DNA of 64,000 bases from UHGV virus genome UHGV-0131811; one strand, written 5' to 3'. The stretch comes from a virus. Below are positions 71-17,491 of the stretch, in pieces (within the stretch, counting starts at the first letter, position 1; the number at the start of each line of letters is the position of its first letter). The notes under the pieces were generated by a model. The model was not told the origin of the DNA, searched no databases, and worked only from the letters and a program-made list of their open reading frames with translations. A program made the translations under genes and the position numbers.

Positions 71-451
71 TTAGTTAATTTTGAAGATTGTTACATAACC
101 ATCACTACCAATTATTTGAGACACTCCAGCTTTTTCTACTTGATAGCCCATATTTTCAAGATGATAAACAGCATCATCGTAACCATATGCGCCACCCTGA
201 TAACGTCTCTTATCGCATCTTATCAGGTTTTTACCACGTCCAGCAAGTGCATGTAAAATGGCTTTTTCACTTGAAAGAGTACCATCTAGCATTGTCGCCG
301 TGTAATGGTTGATTTTATTCCCGTTAATATCATACTTGAAATTGAACGAGTGGACAACAATAACGTTACCTTTAAAATTCTCATCAAGTGACTTCTCCAG
401 TGCGTTGCGAAAGTTGTCTTTATTGATGAATTTAGGTGCACGATATGCCAT
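71..451 (-). CDS. hypothetical protein (126 aa)
   Basis: ORF with GGAG about 9 nt upstream of the ATG on the minus strand; no recognisable motif. Confidence 0.5.
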   Translation of the reverse strand: MAYRAPKFINKDNFRNALEKSLDENFKGNVIVVHSFNFKYDINGNKINHYTATMLDGTLSSEKAILHALAGRGKNLIRCDKRRYQGGAYGYDDAVYHLENMGYQVEKAGVSQIIGSDGYVTIFKIN

Positions 452-973
452 TTTTGAATCTCCTAGTTTAAGGACTTTACTTAGTGGGAAAGGTCATTCC
501 CTCCCCGTTGATGCAAATACTAGATAACCCAGTTCAAAGAGTCAAGAAAAATTTTAAAAATATTTTTGGAAAAACTGTAATGAAACGTGCGCACACGACT
601 ACCACAAAACAGAACACAAATCAAGAATTATTTTTCAATCCGCTACAAATTTTTCTCTTGACTTTTGGGGAGAGGGGGAGTAATAGGGGGAGAGGGGTTG
701 GTCTGGCTCCCCATAAAAACCTACCTGCACAATTCTAAAATGATTTTTCTTGCCCGACCTGAGCGGGGTCTGCACGTTTTGAAAATGAAAAAGCTCTTTG
801 GAGATTACCTGCACAGTTTGAAAATGAATTTTCTCTTTGGAGTTCTAAATTCTCTCTACAGATTTCTCTACAGAACTCTACCTGCACAATCCTGAAATGA
901 AAAAGCCCTCCTTACCTGAAAAATTTACCAGATAAGAAAGGCTTAGTCTATTGTGAATATTATACAGAGTTTC

Positions 974-1759
974 TTAGTTCTTTGCGTCTAAGAAGGTAAC
1001 TTCCGGTGAAGAGAATACCGTCTCGATATCCTCATCAGTTCTTGCATAAATATATGTATCTGCATCACTGCCAAATGTTACGGCTATCCTGTGATTGCTC
1101 TTCGACAGGTGGGTAACTAGAGCGTTACTTAGAGACATCTTCTCAACCGGAGGGTTACTTTGATGTATCTTACCTTTTCTTCGTCTGAAGAGGGTAACTG
1201 CATTATCCGTGAACACAACTACACCTGCAAAGTATTCTGGTTCACAGTAGTTCTTCCAACCTGAGCGTAACTTGTGGTACACCTCTCCTTCATAGACATA
1301 TAGATAAACATCTACACTCTTCATCACCTGATTGATGATAACTGTGACGGCTTGAGGGTCAAGTCCACCGATACCTGCACCAATCATAGGTAAACCAACT
1401 TTCCTCAACTGATTAACTTCACAGTATCTGTTAAGCTGTTTCAAAGATGACTCTAAAGCACTATATCGGGCATCTTTACCAGTCTTAAGCTGAGTGTAAA
1501 GGTTAGCTATACGACCTTGTTTTAAACGTGCTACAGAGAAATTACCCAGTAAATTTTCACAGGGTTTGTGTCCTATACCACCTGCATAGAGATAAACTTC
1601 TGTATCGGTCTCATATGCTTTTGGGTAAAGCTTAGAAATCTTGTCAGCGATACCTGCACCCATTAGGTTCATGCAGTTACAACCATGACCAATGATGTCA
1701 AACTTACCTTTATCAAATGCAGCAAAGATATCACCATTGATGATTTTTACAATACCCAT
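974..1759 (-). CDS. macro-domain (ADP-ribose binding/processing) protein with uncharacterised C-terminal domain
   Basis: N-terminal NGDIF...FDIIGHGCNCMNLMGAGIADKI and later LPMIGAGIGGLDP resemble the two glycine-rich macro-domain motifs; about 110 aa C-terminal extension of unknown fold. Confidence 0.55.
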   Translation of the reverse strand: MGIVKIINGDIFAAFDKGKFDIIGHGCNCMNLMGAGIADKISKLYPKAYETDTEVYLYAGGIGHKPCENLLGNFSVARLKQGRIANLYTQLKTGKDARYSALESSLKQLNRYCEVNQLRKVGLPMIGAGIGGLDPQAVTVIINQVMKSVDVYLYVYEGEVYHKLRSGWKNYCEPEYFAGVVVFTDNAVTLFRRRKGKIHQSNPPVEKMSLSNALVTHLSKSNHRIAVTFGSDADTYIYARTDEDIETVFSSPEVTFLDAKN

Positions 1760-1996
1760 TTAACATCTCTCCCAAGATTCTTTATCTTCTGAAGGTTTTA
1801 CACGCTGTCCTTCGTGGTCTACCCAGATGCACCCACAGCCTTCACAGATTACTGGCATTGCGTAGCCAGCTTTAAAATCATCTTCAGTGATGAGACCTTT
1901 TAAGTCACCTGTATCACGTCCAAACATTTCGATAGAACAGTCTTTGCAGAAGTCAGCCATGAATAATTGCCTCTTGAATGATGATACCTTTACCAC
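1760..1996 (-). CDS. small Cys-rich (putative Zn-binding) protein
   Basis: 78 aa, CKDC...CEGCGC cysteine pairs; abuts downstream gene. Confidence 0.45.
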   Translation of the reverse strand: MVKVSSFKRQLFMADFCKDCSIEMFGRDTGDLKGLITEDDFKAGYAMPVICEGCGCIWVDHEGQRVKPSEDKESWERC

Positions 1997-2186: not shown

Positions 2187-2526
2187 AGTTTACCTTCTCA
2201 GTTAGCTCATATAAATCAACATGCTCGATACTGTCAATGTTGATATCAATCTTTTTGAAACGCTCCATCACTTCGTTATCAGTCATCCATATCAGACACC
2301 AATGATTCTGGATGGATTCTTCAAGAAGGTCAACACAATCTTTAAAAGTTTTTGTATCACTTCTTGTCCCTACTACTGCGATTGTTCCATATAGCCACTT
2401 ACCATTGCCATAAGATACTTGTGCTACACCAACTTCTTTACCTTTCTCGTAGTAAACGGCTACAAAGTCTCTCCCATTAATCTGCATTTGTAAGTTCCTC
2501 TGTTGGTAATTCACCATTTTCAGCAA
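2161..2526 (-). CDS. hypothetical protein
   Basis: 121 aa ORF, co-directional. Confidence 0.45.
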   Translation of the reverse strand: MLKMVNYQQRNLQMQINGRDFVAVYYEKGKEVGVAQVSYGNGKWLYGTIAVVGTRSDTKTFKDCVDLLEESIQNHWCLIWMTDNEVMERFKKIDINIDSIEHVDLYELTEKVNYESNTSQR

Positions 2527-2791
2527 AGTATTGGAGGTACGGCAACAACTCTTTTACCTGTTCTTGATTGAGCTTCATTCTTTGATTACCTACAAAATCT
2601 TTACCAACTAATGCTGGGATATCAAGTGTTTTCCAGCCATTATCTAGGTACTGAACAGAGACCTCTTTAGCACCTAACCAGATACATGGTTCGTATGATG
2701 AACTCTCTTGTAAAGTACAAATTTCCCCTTTAGCATCTTTAAATTCTGCATAAGAAAATCCACGATTTGTTGGCTGGAATTGCATAATCAT
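2477..2791 (-). CDS. hypothetical protein
   Basis: 104 aa ORF, co-directional. Confidence 0.45.
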   Translation of the reverse strand: MIMQFQPTNRGFSYAEFKDAKGEICTLQESSSYEPCIWLGAKEVSVQYLDNGWKTLDIPALVGKDFVGNQRMKLNQEQVKELLPYLQYFAENGELPTEELTNAD

Positions 2792-3057
2792 TTCCTCGTT
2801 TTAAGAACTGCTAAGATTTCTTTAGAATCTGGTAAGAACCATGTGTAGTGATTCTCTTTGATTTCTGGATGAGTGTCAACCTTTATTTTGCACTCCTTAC
2901 CAACATGCTTAAGCTGTGCTGTGACACCTTGCATAAAGATATGACACATCACATTATCCATAATGGTTGGTATGAAGTCAATTCGCATATAAGTTTCTTT
3001 TGGTCGCGGTAACAGTAAGTACCCTTCTACGTAAAAAGTATCTTCATTCTCTGTCAT
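2788..3057 (-). CDS. hypothetical protein
   Basis: 89 aa ORF, 4-nt overlap with upstream gene. Confidence 0.45.
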   Translation of the reverse strand: MTENEDTFYVEGYLLLPRPKETYMRIDFIPTIMDNVMCHIFMQGVTAQLKHVGKECKIKVDTHPEIKENHYTWFLPDSKEILAVLKTRK

Positions 3058-3323
3058 TGCTGTTTATTTCCTAATAAAATCATATCAATAAGGTTATTAG
3101 CTTTGATTGTGCACTGGTAAAATCCATCACGATAGAACTCAAGGGCTGCTGCCACATCACTACCAGTATTACCTTTGATAGTGAATCTTGAGTCTTCTTG
3201 AGTGTACTTATCACTCTCACTTACTTGGGAGTTTTTGAATGTACTGTTCACTTTGTTCGTTGAACACCCTGACATAATTATCAGTAACACAAACATTATA
3301 AAACTCTGGCTTAGTTTTTTCAT
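3054..3323 (-). CDS. lipoprotein, possible o-spanin
   Basis: Signal peptide with lipobox (IIMSGC); overlaps the 3' end of the upstream membrane-protein gene in another frame, an Rz/Rz1-like arrangement. Confidence 0.4.
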   Translation of the reverse strand: MKKLSQSFIMFVLLIIMSGCSTNKVNSTFKNSQVSESDKYTQEDSRFTIKGNTGSDVAAALEFYRDGFYQCTIKANNLIDMILLGNKQQ

Positions 3324-4091: not shown

Positions 4092-4787
4092 TCAATGTTT
4101 AACTAACATGGTTTTAATGTGTGGAAGGATTCTGTTTACCTTCTGAACATTCTTCTCTGTATCTTCTATAAAGCATACTATATTAAAGTAAGGAAGAATG
4201 CAAGACTGAATCATCCTCACTTTCAAACTTTCTGCACTTATAGAGTTAGTTCCAAAACCACGCATAAAAAGCAAGTAATCATGCTCTATATTGTGCCTTA
4301 AAAACATCTCAGTAGGTATTCTCTGAGATTCACCTCTTGCTGTCAAGAGTCCAACTGCTGCATGATTTGCAATTGCATCAATAATGTTGAAAACATATGT
4401 TGGTTTTGCTCTTACAGAATCAAGAAGATTAGTGTACTGTGAGAATGACCCATCAGTCAATTCCGTTGAGCAATCTTCGTGATTAAAATTTGTAAGAACG
4501 CCATCAATATCTGCTAAGATGAGGTTACCTTTTTCTACAAGGTCTTTATTGACTATGACTAAACTATCACGCCTTACACCTATAGTTTGTCCAGTCTCTT
4601 TGTCCACAACGTTCACAATTGGTTCTGATGTGTGGAACTCTTCAAGTGAACATACAACTTCTCTTGCAGTGTCTTCAAAATCCCTGCACTGTTCTGGAGT
4701 CCATACACAGGAATCAAGACCTAACTCATGAGGATGCAAGTCATAAGCGTGGCACAGGACTTCATCAGACTTTCTTAATTTTTTCAT
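4092..4787 (-). CDS. HAD-superfamily phosphatase, putative (deoxy)nucleotidase
   Basis: LILADIDGVLTNF matches the HAD motif I (DxDG[TV]); phage nucleotide-metabolism context. Confidence 0.5.
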   Translation of the reverse strand: MKKLRKSDEVLCHAYDLHPHELGLDSCVWTPEQCRDFEDTAREVVCSLEEFHTSEPIVNVVDKETGQTIGVRRDSLVIVNKDLVEKGNLILADIDGVLTNFNHEDCSTELTDGSFSQYTNLLDSVRAKPTYVFNIIDAIANHAAVGLLTARGESQRIPTEMFLRHNIEHDYLLFMRGFGTNSISAESLKVRMIQSCILPYFNIVCFIEDTEKNVQKVNRILPHIKTMLVKH

Positions 4788-9545: not shown

Positions 9546-11327
9546 TTAAAGCTGATTGTCAATATTATTTCGAATATCACCAAGAGTTGTGTAACCGTAC
9601 TGCTCAGAGTCGCTAAAGACTAAACGTAAAGCACAAGCTGGATGTTCAAGTGCATCTGCAAAGCTCTGGAATCCATAGCCATCTACAGCTTTCAAATTCT
9701 CACCATCCCACATAGGTGCTACACCACCAAAGGCAGATTTCTTAACACCACTATCTGTTTTAGGGTCTTTTGCAAGCATAATCTCTTTGCCACCAATGCT
9801 TGCAAGAGTTGCTTTGACAGCAAATGCAAAGGTGTCACGAGTCATGTACTGGTAAGTGTAAGAGCCTACACCAAACACCACGTTAGAGCTTGCAAACCCC
9901 ATTTCATACAGACGCTTCAGGATTTCGTTTGCACGTTCCAACGTGATAGAGTCACCATAGATAAGTCCAATGTGCTCATCCAGTACCTTAAAACCTTTAG
10001 AGTTGATAGTTCCTCCAAAGATGTTATACAAGGTCTTAATAGCTCCATCAACCTCTGCTACAGGGCGTGTTACAACGTTTGCAGAACCAACCATATAAGC
10101 GTTCTTCAACATCACTGTATCAGCAACTTCAAAGTCTTCTCTGTCAACAACCATTTCGTAGCCTTCTGACAGTAGCCATCCAGCAATACCATAGTTGATG
10201 TTTTCAAGCTTCATGTTAAGAACAGCATTCAACATTGTGTCACTGACTTCCAGCTTGCTTAGGTGCTCGTAATAAGCCTTCTTAGCACATTCTAAGTGGA
10301 TTGCTTTATAACCTGTGACAATATGTACAGGGTCTCCAGAGTCAGGGCGAATTACCAGTTTGCCATCACGTTCCATAATTTCTTTACGAAGTGCTGGTAA
10401 GATTTCTGACACAGTTCTCCAGAAGTTATAAGTGTCTGAAACAACACTTGCAATACCAGTTGGGTAAGTTTCTGTTAAGAAACGACGGAAGGTTTGTAAC
10501 TCACCTTTAAAGCGTCTTTCTTCTTCAATCAACTCATTACCACCTTCCCAAGCAATGTTTGCACACATTACAGAGTGTTCAGTGGCTGGTACAGAGCTAC
10601 CAATATCAGAGATTGAGTAGGACTGTCCATAGATTCGTTTAGCCGTGTATACAGCAGGGAAGCTATCAGTCCCTTTAAAGCTGGTTAAGTGACCTACAGC
10701 GTTAAATGCGTCATCAGTAAAGCCGGACATACCACGCATAGCAAAATCATGGCACTGATAAGGTAAATGTAAGTCATTGTCACAAGTAAGGTCAGCCCAC
10801 TTCTTACAGATGCGTTTGTAATGCAATGCAATAGTTGCAATGGTGCAAGCCTTCCAAATTTCAGCAGAGAAAGCATCTTCCAGATAACCTGCTACCCAAT
10901 GAAAACCTGAAACAGTGTTCTGAAAGACAATCATCGGGACACGCATTGGAACAACTGTGCCTTCTTCTACAGCGTATACTTCAACTGGTAGATAACCTAA
11001 GTCGTGAAGTGCTTCCCAATGCTCTCGACCGATAGCATCTTTACCCAGAACACCATTCATGACTTCTAAGATTTCATCAATGGCTTCTTTTTTATCACGT
11101 TCAAAGAAAGTGGCATTCCAGTGGTCTATCAAGTAATCTTTAACAAAACGTTGAATACCAAAAGCCACTACACCGTCAATTGCTAAAGGGCTGTTAAACC
11201 ATTTATCACTACGTGGTGTCAGGTTGAACATCAAGTATTCTGTTGCACTAGGATACTGGTAAACATGACCAGATTTGTAAGCATCTGCATTTAAACCTGC
11301 TGGTACTGCATAAAGTGATTTAGTCAT
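9546..11327 (-). CDS. nadV: nicotinamide phosphoribosyltransferase-family enzyme (NadV/Nampt-like; possibly Namat of the NARP1 pathway)
   Basis: 593 aa; family-level resemblance to Nampt over its length (N-terminal NADAYKSGH... region, GTDS-type motif); adjacent to Prs-like gene. Confidence 0.75.
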   Translation of the reverse strand: MTKSLYAVPAGLNADAYKSGHVYQYPSATEYLMFNLTPRSDKWFNSPLAIDGVVAFGIQRFVKDYLIDHWNATFFERDKKEAIDEILEVMNGVLGKDAIGREHWEALHDLGYLPVEVYAVEEGTVVPMRVPMIVFQNTVSGFHWVAGYLEDAFSAEIWKACTIATIALHYKRICKKWADLTCDNDLHLPYQCHDFAMRGMSGFTDDAFNAVGHLTSFKGTDSFPAVYTAKRIYGQSYSISDIGSSVPATEHSVMCANIAWEGGNELIEEERRFKGELQTFRRFLTETYPTGIASVVSDTYNFWRTVSEILPALRKEIMERDGKLVIRPDSGDPVHIVTGYKAIHLECAKKAYYEHLSKLEVSDTMLNAVLNMKLENINYGIAGWLLSEGYEMVVDREDFEVADTVMLKNAYMVGSANVVTRPVAEVDGAIKTLYNIFGGTINSKGFKVLDEHIGLIYGDSITLERANEILKRLYEMGFASSNVVFGVGSYTYQYMTRDTFAFAVKATLASIGGKEIMLAKDPKTDSGVKKSAFGGVAPMWDGENLKAVDGYGFQSFADALEHPACALRLVFSDSEQYGYTTLGDIRNNIDNQL

Positions 11328-11372
11328 CTTTTAATCTCTCTCAAAATGGGGCTTTTAAGCCCCTATAAAGTT

Positions 11373-12269
11373 TCAATCAAGGTTTGCTACAGTAACTTGA
11401 CCATAATGTGTTAAGCCACGGTCTTTAGCTTCCCCTAAAGAGTTTGTAGTGTAGATGTGGTCAATGCCATTGTCAAGAAGGTTTTCAACATCTTTAGAGA
11501 AGATACCATGTGTTACATAGAGTTCCACACGTTTTGCACCTGCTTCACGGAGATGCTTAGCTGCTTCTATGAAGGTTCGACCACCATCACAGATATCATC
11601 CAGAATCATGACGGTTTTATCTGTCAAATCAACATCATCAAGGATTCGCATACCAGTAATTTCACCAGTCTTAAGGTTACGCACCTTAGACATTGTGATA
11701 TATGGTTTATCCACCTCTTTAGCGGTCTCTGCAACCTTCTTAGCAGCACCTGCATCTGGGGCTACTAAGTAATCAACCAGTGGGTCATTTGCATAGTGGA
11801 CTGCAATCTCCTTTTGAGGAATACTCTGGAAGCAGTTAAACAGGTTATCTGGTACATAGCTGTGAGGGTCAACTGCACAGACTGCGCCAAATCCCATTGC
11901 ATTAATCTGTTTAGCAAAAACCTTTAAAGCTGCTGCGTCACCTTTAAACATGTGACGGTCATATCGTGCATTTGGTAAGTAGTAAAAGATGACAGTCTTT
12001 AAAGCATAATCATGAGGAATTAAATCATCAATTGCTTCTTTAGCAAGTGCCACAGCAAACAATGTGTCCTTGTCATAACCTTTTACAATCATAATCACAT
12101 TGTTGATGGATGATGCTGCATAAGCAGTAAAATCAACAAACTCTGGCGAAAAGTGTCCACCAATCTCACCAGAAGGGAATTGGACGATGTTAAACTCTTC
12201 TTCATGAGTCCCTTTAGTTGGTGAATGAACTGTAACACGGATAGATGTTTTCATAGTTTTCTCTCTCAA
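11373..12269 (-). CDS. prs: ribose-phosphate pyrophosphokinase-family enzyme (Prs-like; possibly ADPR-PP synthetase Adps)
   Basis: About 295 aa; PRPP-synthase-like phosphoribosyl-binding region (VMILDDICDGGRTF); true start may be the second Met (MKTSIR). Confidence 0.7.
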   Translation of the reverse strand: MREKTMKTSIRVTVHSPTKGTHEEEFNIVQFPSGEIGGHFSPEFVDFTAYAASSINNVIMIVKGYDKDTLFAVALAKEAIDDLIPHDYALKTVIFYYLPNARYDRHMFKGDAAALKVFAKQINAMGFGAVCAVDPHSYVPDNLFNCFQSIPQKEIAVHYANDPLVDYLVAPDAGAAKKVAETAKEVDKPYITMSKVRNLKTGEITGMRILDDVDLTDKTVMILDDICDGGRTFIEAAKHLREAGAKRVELYVTHGIFSKDVENLLDNGIDHIYTTNSLGEAKDRGLTHYGQVTVANLD

Positions 12270-13808: not shown

Positions 13809-14294
13809 TTACTCTGCTCTCCACTGACAATCACCTTGCCATCCGTACTCTTTTCTCCAGAGGTTTTGGTTATCTGAACCACGATACGGTTTAACTGTTG
13901 GTTTAGATGAATCATACTTACCATCAATCACCACGTCAACATATTTCATCACATCAAGGTGAATTTTTTCGTGCAGTTGAAAACCTGTCCAAAGCCATAT
14001 AGACTTTTCTGGATAAACAGTTTTAATACGCTTGCATATGTTGGTAACCTCTTGAATATTTCTATCATCTAGAGGTTCTCCACCAAGTATTGACAGCCCA
14101 CTGATGGCATTATCATCCATTAACTTAATGATGCCATAAAGGTTTGCATAAGTGAACTCTTTACCAGCATTAAACTTCCAAGATTCCTTATTAAAGCAAC
14201 CTTCACAGTGATGCTTACAACCAGCTACGAAGAGGCTTACACGAACCCCTTCACCATTAGCTGTGTCAAATGGTCGAATCTCCATGTAATTCAT
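13809..14294 (-). CDS. nrdG: anaerobic ribonucleotide reductase activating protein (radical SAM)
   Basis: CKHHCEGC cysteine cluster near N-terminus; about 160 aa; near nrdD. Confidence 0.75.
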   Translation of the reverse strand: MNYMEIRPFDTANGEGVRVSLFVAGCKHHCEGCFNKESWKFNAGKEFTYANLYGIIKLMDDNAISGLSILGGEPLDDRNIQEVTNICKRIKTVYPEKSIWLWTGFQLHEKIHLDVMKYVDVVIDGKYDSSKPTVKPYRGSDNQNLWRKEYGWQGDCQWRAE

Positions 14295-14303
14295 CTAGTT
14301 ACC

Positions 14304-14603
14304 TCACCAATACATATAAGTGTTCTTAGCGGCTTTCTTTGGAGACTTGCTATCAATATCAAAATCTTCATCTAAGAAGGATGTCTTAGAAAGCTGCCTT
14401 ATTTGTGTTCTTGTAAGACGTTTAGTGGCCTTCTTAATCTCTCTACAAGGCTGGCTTGTGAAGTCGTAAGAGCCACCTTTTCTGGACATCATATCAGAAT
14501 GGAAGTAGACATCTGAAGCATTTTCTCTGTTACGTACCTCATTTCTCCACTCATAGAGTCCATGAACGTTCTTTAAACCTTTTCTTCGAATTGTTTTACT
14601 CAT
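14304..14603 (-). CDS. hypothetical protein
   Basis: 99 aa ORF. Confidence 0.45.
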   Translation of the reverse strand: MSKTIRRKGLKNVHGLYEWRNEVRNRENASDVYFHSDMMSRKGGSYDFTSQPCREIKKATKRLTRTQIRQLSKTSFLDEDFDIDSKSPKKAAKNTYMYW

Positions 14604-14995
14604 TCAAACACCACCTGACAAGGAACCTGTTTAGTAATAAATTCTTCGCAGTGTTCTTTAATGAAGTTTTGTAATGGCACACAATCTTGTGCACAAGTCA
14701 TTAGTATAATGTACTCTGGATTCATAATGTTTTCAAGAGTGTAGAAGACAACATCGTTAGATAATTCATGACCATCTTCTTCAGACCAAGTTCCAGAGAC
14801 TACAGCTAATTTGTCAAGCAATTCATTAGGTAACGCTACGCCATCTTCTACGGAATCACTTAGAACGTTGTCGCTGATGTACAATGTGAAGGTCGTATGG
14901 AATGTTGAATATCTTACGTGATTCTTTTCGCAAGAGCCACACTCTGAGGCATAATCTTTAATCCGCTCTAACTGTTTTTTGTTCAACTTAATCAT
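14600..14995 (-). CDS. hypothetical protein
   Basis: 131 aa ORF, 4-nt overlaps on both sides. Confidence 0.45.
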   Translation of the reverse strand: MIKLNKKQLERIKDYASECGSCEKNHVRYSTFHTTFTLYISDNVLSDSVEDGVALPNELLDKLAVVSGTWSEEDGHELSNDVVFYTLENIMNPEYIILMTCAQDCVPLQNFIKEHCEEFITKQVPCQVVFE

Positions 14996-15192
14996 AATTT
15001 CACCTTAGTTGGCAATGCACTGAATGTTATGACTAACCCTAAAAATGGTTTGAAGCATGACCATAAATCCATCTGACCCTGATATGCGAAACTCCATTGT
15101 GGGTCTGAAAAACCCCATACCATAACACTAACCCCAAAGAAGAAGATTAGAATGTGGAGAATGTATATCAACGCTTTTGATATTTTAAACAT
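14992..15192 (-). CDS. small membrane protein
   Basis: 66 aa, two hydrophobic segments. Confidence 0.4.
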   Translation of the reverse strand: MFKISKALIYILHILIFFFGVSVMVWGFSDPQWSFAYQGQMDLWSCFKPFLGLVITFSALPTKVKL

Positions 15193-15346
15193 TTTAACTT
15201 GCCTCTTAATTCACAATAAGAGAGTCCTAAAAAGAACCCTAGTAAGACAGAACCTATGAACAACCCAATAATACTCTCTGCCATGTCTAACATCCAATAA
15301 AAAAGGTGATGTAAGCCTATCAAGACTCACACCACCATGTCAAGTT

Positions 15347-17491
15347 TTACATAGAAACTCTGTCACGAATCTCAGCGATTTTTGCATCGTTCATTCGGGA
15401 TTCACCTTTAATCTTAGTCCATCCAAGATACCCACACACCCTGTTAATCACAGAGATATCATGTGAGTGACAAACTTCACATTCTTCAACATCAGCCTTT
15501 GGCCTGTTACCACAATGTTCACAGATTGCTAAGTCAAAGTTAAGTCCCTGATAGAAACCTTTCAACATCCCTCTTGTAATACAGCTCTTAAGTGCTGATA
15601 AGTTTTCTGGGTTAGCTACTCTTACATACTGGATTCTACCGCCTCTACAGATATGGAAGAATGTCTCTTCTAAGTCCTGCTTCTCAAATGGTGAGATGTC
15701 TGCTGCAACATTCATATGGAAACTGTTTGTAAAGTATTCCTTATCGGAAACACCTTTGATAACCCCAAACATATCTCTGAACTGTTTTAGCTGAGTCCCA
15801 CATAGTGATTCTGCTGGAGTACCATAGACGGCATATAAGAAGCCATCTTCATTTTTAAACTCTTCGGTTTTCATGTTAATGTATGCCAGAACATCATATG
15901 CAAAACTATAGCTTCCAACTTCATGAAGTCGTTCACCTTCAGCAAGAACAGACAACTCATCAAGCGCAGTAACACCAAAAGAAGCTGTGAAGGACTTCAC
16001 AATATCCCAACCAACCTTGTCAGTAGGTTTCTTAGTTCCTTTGTACAGACCACCTTGTGTGAACGCAAGAGGGTTAGAACTTGCTGGCATATTAGCAATC
16101 ATTTCGTAGCGTTTCTTGTGGAAGTTGCGAATCATCTCTAGGTACTTATCAAGCTCTTTCCAGAAATCTAAACCATTCTCTTTAGAATACTGGTAAATCA
16201 TCGGTAAGTTCAAAGATACAGCACCAATGTTAGCACGACCAACATAGAACTCTTCCCCATCCTCATTAAGATATGGAGATAAGAAGGCTCTGCAACCCAT
16301 CGGTGAAATTACCTTGCCAGAACGCTCAAAAGCCTCTGCTACAGCACCATGACCAGATACACTTAAGAAGTCTGGATACATTGCTTTAGAGCAACACTCA
16401 ATAGCTTTACTGTACAGGTGACCTTGACAGATATTCTCATCATGTCTCTTCTGGTCATAAATATAAACCAGTTTAGGGAATACAACAGGTTTTTTACTCT
16501 TGCCTTGTCCATTCATACGAACATCTAGGAGAGTACTTGCAATCATGTATTGTAGTCGATTATCCTCATTAGACATATCTGAGTCAAGTAAACCAAATGT
16601 TAAAGTTGTGAATGCAAAATCACCACGGCTACAAGGTACGGTATTTAGTTTCATCTCAAGTGACTGAAAACCTTGAGTCAGTTCAATTTGTAACTGCTCC
16701 ATTACATAATTGTGGTAATGCTCTTTAGGAATACCATAAGATGATGCTTTCTCAGCATGATAGCGTAGAGACTTCTTAGCATACGGTACAAGTACCTTAT
16801 CAATCTCTGCTAAAGTAAAACCACCAAATTGCTGTGCAGTTGCTGAAAGTACTACGTCACCAATAACCTGCAACGCTGACAGTACAGATTTAGGTTCACA
16901 GTACTCAATGCCGGACATTTCAAAGCCACCTTTTAGTACTTTACCAATGTCAAACAGGCAACAGTTAATACCACCAAAAATCAGGTCTCTCAAATCGTGG
17001 ATATAGATAAAGCCTTTCTCAATGGCTTCAAGTTCCTCTGGTGTTAGATGATACTGTTTAAAGATTTCTTTAGTCAGGTAACCACGGATAATTGAACCTT
17101 TCGTAGAAATTAAACTGCTGTCAAAGTTAGCATTTTCACGGTCACCTAAGAAGAGTGTATCTTTAGTCTTCTGGTAGAGTTCGTCCCAATTTTGAGCAAC
17201 CTCTTTACGGTAATTTCTGTATGTTGAGTAAGACTCATAAATCTCGTGATTGACCTCTGCCAAAGCACCTTCAACAATACTGTGAATATCATTTACCGAG
17301 ATAAGCAAATTATTCTGCTTAGTGGACTTTACCAAAATCCTCATGAATGCTGACTCAAGAGCTTGGGTAACATCTGGTGGCAGTTCTTTATATCCAACCC
17401 TGTTAGCTGACTTTGTTACTGCCGCTAAAACTTTTTTGATATCAGGTTCTTCAAGTGAGCCATTCTTTTTAATAATCTGTACTTTGTTCAT
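15347..17491 (-). CDS. nrdD: anaerobic ribonucleoside-triphosphate reductase
   Basis: 714 aa; N-terminal ATP-cone; C-terminal Zn-Cys cluster (CEHCGN...CEVCHSHD) and glycyl-radical motif RVCGYLG. Confidence 0.9.
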   Translation of the reverse strand: MNKVQIIKKNGSLEEPDIKKVLAAVTKSANRVGYKELPPDVTQALESAFMRILVKSTKQNNLLISVNDIHSIVEGALAEVNHEIYESYSTYRNYRKEVAQNWDELYQKTKDTLFLGDRENANFDSSLISTKGSIIRGYLTKEIFKQYHLTPEELEAIEKGFIYIHDLRDLIFGGINCCLFDIGKVLKGGFEMSGIEYCEPKSVLSALQVIGDVVLSATAQQFGGFTLAEIDKVLVPYAKKSLRYHAEKASSYGIPKEHYHNYVMEQLQIELTQGFQSLEMKLNTVPCSRGDFAFTTLTFGLLDSDMSNEDNRLQYMIASTLLDVRMNGQGKSKKPVVFPKLVYIYDQKRHDENICQGHLYSKAIECCSKAMYPDFLSVSGHGAVAEAFERSGKVISPMGCRAFLSPYLNEDGEEFYVGRANIGAVSLNLPMIYQYSKENGLDFWKELDKYLEMIRNFHKKRYEMIANMPASSNPLAFTQGGLYKGTKKPTDKVGWDIVKSFTASFGVTALDELSVLAEGERLHEVGSYSFAYDVLAYINMKTEEFKNEDGFLYAVYGTPAESLCGTQLKQFRDMFGVIKGVSDKEYFTNSFHMNVAADISPFEKQDLEETFFHICRGGRIQYVRVANPENLSALKSCITRGMLKGFYQGLNFDLAICEHCGNRPKADVEECEVCHSHDISVINRVCGYLGWTKIKGESRMNDAKIAEIRDRVSM

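Follow-up and report, generated by a model that had tools for sequence, protein, structure and literature searches.

The DNA analysed here is a 64,000-nucleotide stretch of the virus genome UHGV-0131811 (the window), and our subject is a gene near its start that joins a macro domain to an orphan C-terminal domain (CTD). The gene (974..1759, minus strand) is a complete, ATG-initiated open reading frame (ORF) of 261 amino acids plus stop in the ORF list, and it is the sole macro gene within the 64-kb window. Both halves of its product are covered by PHROG 335 (labelled 'phosphatase', E 9e-113). The first 6 kb of the window show 90-97% nucleotide identity to ~200 Felix O1-like phages (Ounavirinae, Felixounavirus), whose hosts are E. 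coli, Salmonella, and Shigella; the top match is Escherichia phage vB_EcoM-Pr103Blw (97.3%), and its record labels the orthologue 'macro domain-containing protein'.

The macro-CTD gene is kept at 87-99% across the ~200 Felixounavirus genomes—it is real and under selection. Orthologues that are 95-99% identical carry the labels 'macro domain-containing protein' or 'phosphatase', and further records read 'putative phosphatase', 'ymdB: O-acetyl-ADP-ribose deacetylase', 'hypothetical protein', or 'Poa1p_like family'. The macro assignment itself is therefore ordinary and already present in database annotations; what is new here is the explicit link to AdfM, the glutamine substitution held in common with T4, and the orphan, cassette-like CTD. 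The features discussed below are collected in Table 1.

Table 1. The macro-CTD gene, its parts, and neighbouring features in the window (positions in nucleotides).
Feature	Position	Strand	Basis or remark
Macro domain plus orphan CTD, whole gene	974..1759	minus	ORF list; PHROG 335; annotated orthologues
Macro domain, residues 1-156; DarG/TARG1/Poa1p-like branch, putative T4 Tk.4 (AdfM) type	1292..1759	minus	
H25-G-C-N28-C-x-N-x-M33-G-A-G36, phosphate-binding loop 1 with the Asn equivalent to DarG N22 / PhiKZ AdfM N23	1652..1687	minus	invariant in 19 homologues; joint alignment
N86-L-Y-T-Q90, with Q90 at the catalytic lysine position of DarG (K80) and TARG1 (K84)	1490..1504	minus	invariant in 19 homologues
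P124-x-I-G-A-G-I-G-G-L-D134, phosphate-binding loop 2	1358..1390	minus	P124, G127-A-G-I, and G132-L-D invariant; aligns with DarG GxGNGGLD
Orphan CTD, residues 157-261	977..1291	minus	models, conserved columns; no family or fold match
Terminator-like hairpin and T-run, 30 nt past the macro-CTD stop	903..944	minus	terminator scan; phage wV8 also has a rho-independent terminator annotated here
Small Cys-rich ORF, CxxC...CxxC, zinc-ribbon-like	1760..1996	minus	66 aa from internal Met used in relatives
NAMPT (NAPRTase/NAMPT_N)	9546..11327	minus	
Prs-like phosphoribosyl-pyrophosphate synthetase	11373..12269	minus	

The first-pass annotation of this gene, made from the sequence, had placed both glycine-rich macro-domain motifs in the N-terminal half, and this assignment holds. 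Pfam Macro (PF01661) aligns nearly in full (profile positions 2-117 of 118) with residues 25-141 and scores 31.7 bits (E 1.7e-7), above its gathering score of 22, and the glycine-rich loops M33-G-A-G36 and G127-A-G-I-x-G132 are invariant in 19 homologues. A full-length AlphaFold2 model built from these 19 homologues (mean predicted local distance difference test score, pLDDT, 86.5; predicted template modelling score, pTM, 0.86) has the three-layer alpha/beta/alpha fold of the Macro superfamily. That the N-terminus might instead belong to a different Rossmann-like family was checked as well, and the macro domain stands. In a joint alignment both phosphate-binding loops line up with those of DarG, AdfM, and TARG1, and N28 matches the asparagine of loop 1 (active-site residues for this comparison from PMC13309987). 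The lysine position is taken by Q90 within NLYTQ; DarG, PhiKZ AdfM, and TARG1 have T-K there, as part of PTK in the first two. The two glycine-rich motifs point to putative binding or hydrolysis of derivatives of ADP-ribose (ADPR) by the domain.

The closest characterized relative in our comparisons is a T4 protein. T4 Tk.4 is 35% identical to the window protein (E 3e-24, Tk.4 residues 2-152 of 155), and the sequence used as T4-like comparison is 100% identical to the tk.4 product of T4 and T2. Among defence-related and NCBI family models DarG alone was matched, and only over the macro part (PADLOC DarG: E 5e-13, model positions 18-146 of 329). Because Q90 sits in an invariant NLYTQ that exactly matches T4 Tk.4, as opposed to the T-K of DarG, PhiKZ AdfM, and TARG1, we place the window protein by sequence in the T4-type AdfM branch and not in DarG proper. 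T4-like matches reach only residues 3-157, and the CTD is missing from all T4-like homologues; ~2,500 phage genomes have such weaker, macro-only matches (<60% identity), and among the macro-only matches listed are T4-like phages in which the gene lies between vs and tk.

Two recent studies bear on the likely function. In T4, tk.4 was the single hit of a transposon screen against DarTG2 and was named adfM; a clean knockout made the phage DarTG2-sensitive (bioRxiv 10.1101/2025.11.20.689424). In PhiKZ, gp104—the AdfM of chimalliviruses—strips DarT2-installed ADP-ribose from DNA, and in vitro proof of this activity exists for PhiKZ AdfM only (PMC13309987). A need for AdfM in phage growth on DarTG2 hosts has been reported for PhiKZ and T4, and for these two only.

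The second half of the protein is a different matter. Structure models build the CTD from a linker helix (158-167), a conserved N170-x-S/C-x-P174-x-x-F-D/A-G179 motif, some six beta-strands, and one short helix; P174 and G179 never vary, Y236 hardly does, and N170, F177, and D232 are conserved too. The linker helix and the conserved motif gain confidence in the models only if the macro domain is included (pLDDT 77-87, against 55 without it). This gain, together with the full-length pTM given above, suggests that a fixed interface joins the predicted CTD to the macro domain.

The absence of a recognisable motif in the C-terminal half, already remarked on in the first-pass annotation, is borne out by wider searches: Pfam, the Protein Data Bank (PDB), and a viral structure library give no outside family. 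The Pfam searches covered the window CTD, the full set of 16 CTD variants, and another four distant variants at full length; no match at E<=0.1 recurred among members, and the scattered ones at E 0.02-0.2 (e.g., PH, NAC) were inconsistent. PHROGs returned only the protein's own family, phrog_335; the PDB sequence search left the CTD without a match, and the viral structure library matched it to its own family only. A CTD-only search of a 5.8-billion-protein index came back empty, its own family included, apparently through a limitation of the word index; a full-length search of the same index yielded the 19 two-domain homologues. When 1.84 billion representatives were searched with a profile, the CTD turned up only in the same two-domain phage family, in fragments of it, and in repeat proteins. 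The long repeat-protein matches were judged spurious—P0038, the one inspected, consists of PQQ-like beta-propeller blades. The CTD is small and well folded, and it has no relatives beyond the macro fusion.

The two halves evolve at very different rates. Among eight Felixounaviruses the ratio of nonsynonymous to synonymous substitution rates (dN/dS) has a median of 0.05 in the macro domain and of 0.24 in the CTD; the CTD is under purifying selection, yet its pace of change is about five times that of the macro domain. Measured against the window protein, identity falls further in the CTD than in the macro domain: 76-81% (macro) and 45-52% (CTD) for Moogle/Susp-type alleles, 54% and 18% for a BPS17L1-type allele, and ~43% and 17% for metagenomic relatives. 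The CTD is seen only in fusion with this macro type, in genes that hold the corresponding position in Felix O1-like phages. All two-domain homologues whose context was read share the Felix O1-like layout—rIIA/rIIB, an SLT-like gene, a HAD-PNKP-like gene, small ORFs, and then macro-CTD—and every named member is an Ounavirinae phage or a phage contig under an enterobacterial name.

A comparison with Salmonella phage BPS17L1, also a Felixounavirus, adds to this picture of turnover. Its flanks match the window at 93-95% nucleotide identity, and the product of the upstream gene does so at 98%; nucleotide similarity is gone from about codon 48 to the terminator (window ~930-1617 against BPS17L1 1128-1821), and the proteins are 41% identical. 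We read the BPS17L1 macro-CTD allele, from this sequence pattern, as a cassette-like replacement. Window 2501-2780 is likewise missing in BPS17L1. In Erwinia phage phiEa104 (Kolesnikvirus) the orthologue (2498-3280) has 260 amino acids, of which the final 100 match neither a Pfam family nor, detectably, the CTD profile; this tail has either been replaced or diverged past recognition.

Homology to T4 Tk.4, and T4's need of that protein against DarTG2, lead us to read the gene as probably encoding a DNA de-ADP-ribosylase of the AdfM type: it would erase DarT2 DNA ADP-ribosylation and carry a lineage-specific, fast-evolving adaptor domain, a reading to which we give about an even chance. The N-terminal macro domain would bind the ADP-ribose that host DarT2-type toxins put on thymidine in single-stranded phage DNA and hydrolyse the base-ribose bond, and replication would thereby be restored; the role is modelled on T4 Tk.4/AdfM, where it was inferred, and on PhiKZ AdfM, where it was shown biochemically. 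The first-pass annotation had offered either removal of ADP-ribosylation or degradation of ADPR-based immune signals; the former is now the best-supported reading, and the latter has lost ground, since kinship with AdfM makes ADP-ribosylated thymidine in single-stranded DNA the most likely substrate rather than cyclic-ADPR-type signals.

The CTD, on this AdfM-type reading, would be a lineage-specific accessory module packed rigidly on the macro domain, most likely an adaptor that confers specificity or binds a partner, be it the DNA substrate, the replication machinery of the phage, or a host protein. Its fast evolution, the cassette swap, and the phiEa104 tail fit an adaptor or partner-binding module, and a second catalytic site is probably not what it provides.

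Several points weigh against an AdfM-type eraser. Q90 is invariant exactly where DarG (K80), TARG1 (K84), and PhiKZ AdfM (K78) have their catalytic lysine. The DarG equivalog model of NCBIfam (NF048014) is matched at E 1.8e-12 over positions 4-151 of 338 with 47.2 bits, far below its cut-off of 250. A metagenomic relative of 339 amino acids, P0026, has a macro domain 34% identical to that of the window protein fused to cREC_REC (PF20274, E 4.7e-7), a 'cyclic-phosphate processing receiver' domain linked to the processing of cyclic-phosphate ADPR derivatives; by analogy, this fusion hints at small-molecule substrates in this macro branch. DNA binding, or DNA mimicry, was also considered from the charge of the CTD and set aside: net charge spans -5 to +4 over the homologues, and without a consistent sign it indicates neither. 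Nor did the searchable literature yield a DarTG2 test of any Felixounavirus. For T4 Tk.4 itself the evidence is genetic only, not biochemical (bioRxiv 10.1101/2025.11.20.689424). Because of this, and because an invariant glutamine replaces the DarG/TARG1 lysine, the chemistry of this branch is presumptive: ADP-ribosyl-thymidine DNA as the substrate, and catalysis despite the glutamine, are presumed. Any role of the CTD is presumed too.

The alternatives differ mainly in what the macro domain would act on. A small-molecule hydrolase of the Poa1p type would dephosphorylate ADP-ribose-1''-phosphate, deacetylate O-acetyl-ADP-ribose, or break down an ADPR-derived toxic metabolite or immune signal; the database name 'phosphatase' goes back to such an activity, and we hold this reading to be unlikely. 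The labels 'Poa1p_like family' and 'phosphatase' in the records point that way, as does the N-terminal motif, but 'phosphatase' is a transferred annotation, and similarity to Poa1p is weaker than that to DarG, TARG1, or T4 Tk.4. The lysine-to-glutamine change takes away the catalytic residue of DarG and TARG1, and both the cyclic-phosphate-processing partner of P0026 and a HAD-PNKP-like gene 2.3 kb off in all orthologous loci would suit small-molecule chemistry; the sole functional data for the subfamily, however, those on T4 tk.4, concern the DNA-modifying DarTG2. To our knowledge, T4-type Pnkp/ligase repair makes no 2'-phosphate, and hence no ADP-ribose 1'',2''-cyclic phosphate (Appr>p) as a by-product, which counts against a Poa1p-type role as well.

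It is doubtful, and a shade less probable, that the protein removes ADP-ribose from another macromolecule—RNA, or a protein of host or phage, that other bacterial ADP-ribosyltransferase defences have modified—with the CTD choosing the target. Macro domains are versatile in their substrates across the superfamily (PMC9503650), and a variable CTD could set target choice; yet the catalytic pair of TARG1 is missing (K84 to Q90, D125 to Gly), the surroundings show no ADP-ribosyltransferase gene and no known target, be it protein or RNA, and the phenotype of the T4 homologue is DarTG2-specific. The same low degree of belief attaches to the idea that the CTD is a second, independent anti-defence module, one that might, for instance, directly bind and inhibit DarT2 or another host immune protein. 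In that case the protein would have converged in function on two-domain DarG, which pairs an eraser with a toxin binder, and its second fold would be unrelated to that of DarG, hypervariable, and swapped between phages in cassette-like fashion. A non-catalytic ADP-ribose reader or sponge, whose macro domain only binds ADPR, a signal, or an adduct while the CTD delivers the output by partner binding or blocking, seems very unlikely, for although the catalytic lysine of DarG/TARG1 is lost, binding-only macro domains exist (PMC9503650), and rigid packing of the two domains is predicted, H25, N28 (the DarG N22 equivalent), and the two phosphate loops never vary, very strong purifying selection acts on the macro domain, as it would on an enzyme, and single-domain T4 Tk.4 with the same glutamine protects from an enzymatic toxin, with which stoichiometric binding would cope poorly.

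Around the macro-CTD gene lies a stretch of small accessory genes. A terminator-like hairpin follows its stop codon, and the gene is therefore the last in its transcription unit. Upstream, the small Cys-rich ORF ends in a TAA directly before the macro ATG, and its 3' end contains a Shine-Dalgarno-like GGGAGAG 8 nt upstream, an arrangement that suggests translational coupling. The Cys-rich ORF has no Pfam match; it is 98% identical in BPS17L1, and unrelated small ORFs take its position in distant orthologous loci. We considered it as a conserved partner and rejected the idea: since it is not kept upstream of distant orthologues, it is probably no functional partner. Downstream, a ~22-nt direct repeat, TCATTT(T)CA-N4-5-GTGCAGGTA, occurs in four copies 39-84 nt apart (window 720-905, minus-strand reading) in the 520 nt that separate the next gene (71..451) from the macro gene's terminator. 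Phage wV8 has a 'DR_6' repeat region annotated in the same intergenic gap, a candidate counterpart; the repeats may be regulator-binding sites or phage promoter elements.

The first-pass annotation had also tied the macro gene to an NAD+ module 8 kb away, a link that found no support. The NAMPT/Prs-like NAD+ salvage pair (9546-12269, minus strand) is followed by the anaerobic ribonucleotide reductase NrdD and a radical-SAM activase (13809-17491, minus strand), and these genes form a metabolic module apart from the macro gene. Between the two lie rIIA/rIIB, the SLT-like gene, spanin genes, and at least two coding-strand terminator-like hairpins, so that they are separate units; functional coupling is supported neither by gene order nor by transcription signals, and T4 Tk.4 works without such a module. 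Elsewhere, window 4092-4787 (minus strand) encodes a 231-amino-acid protein called 'polynucleotide kinase' in relatives; it has a HAD-type DxDGV motif only and no Pfam match at E<=0.01, and its positional counterparts give weak HAD_PNKP scores. A possible origin is an RNA or DNA end-repair enzyme of which only the phosphatase is left. GC skew flips sign at ~30 kb and again at ~42 kb, marking blocks transcribed in opposite directions. In the 64-kb window ARAGORN detected no tRNA genes, and Rfam no family at gathering thresholds.

Felix O1-like phages are in wide diagnostic and therapeutic use against Salmonella and E. coli. If the macro-CTD protein is indeed an anti-DarTG2 factor, it would help explain and predict the host range of these phages on DarTG-carrying strains, and the newly described AdfM family would reach a second large group of phages. 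Macro-only and macro-plus-CTD proteins could then be compared as they occur in nature, which might reveal how phage erasers are targeted. The invariant glutamine at the DarG lysine position, as in T4 AdfM, poses a concrete question—how does this branch hydrolyse the adduct?—and rapid turnover makes the CTD a candidate arms-race interface. The advance is incremental: the macro call was already annotated, and the likely function follows from the 2025-2026 work on T4 and PhiKZ.

The window protein can be set against known systems, among them eukaryotic members of its branch. Sequence similarity to yeast Poa1p is restricted to the first 60 residues; human TARG1/OARD1 differs in that neither K84 nor D125 is kept, the latter aligning with Gly, and both proteins lack a CTD. 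DarG, the DarTG2 antitoxin (PDB 5m3i, 5m31, 7omu), is set apart by the wide miss of its equivalog cut-off and by the replacement of its catalytic lysine with glutamine: the counterpart of N22 (Taq DarG) is present in the window protein, and that of K80 is absent. The C-terminal DarT-binding domain of DarG has neither sequence nor fold likeness to the CTD, and no darT gene adjoins the macro-CTD gene, as would mark a member of DarG.

Two phage proteins complete the comparison. PhiKZ AdfM is likewise a phage macro domain of the DarG-like branch, its active-site N23 corresponds to the invariant N28, and removing DarT2 ADP-ribose from DNA is the predicted role in both; in contrast, it is only ~23-25% identical, keeps the DarG catalytic lysine (FPTK), scores far better against the DarG hidden Markov model (4e-39 against 5e-13), and is a single domain that is imported into the phage nucleus. 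T4 Tk.4 is a single domain too, with 155 residues against 261 in the window protein, which has the additional 105-residue CTD; of these two, T4 tk.4 has genetic evidence behind it, whereas the Felixounavirus gene is read from sequence. In other respects the two resemble each other: both are accessory genes of lytic coliphage myoviruses, and both products carry the AHGCNC, NLYTQ, and P-x-IGAGIG motifs, including the glutamine at the DarG lysine position.
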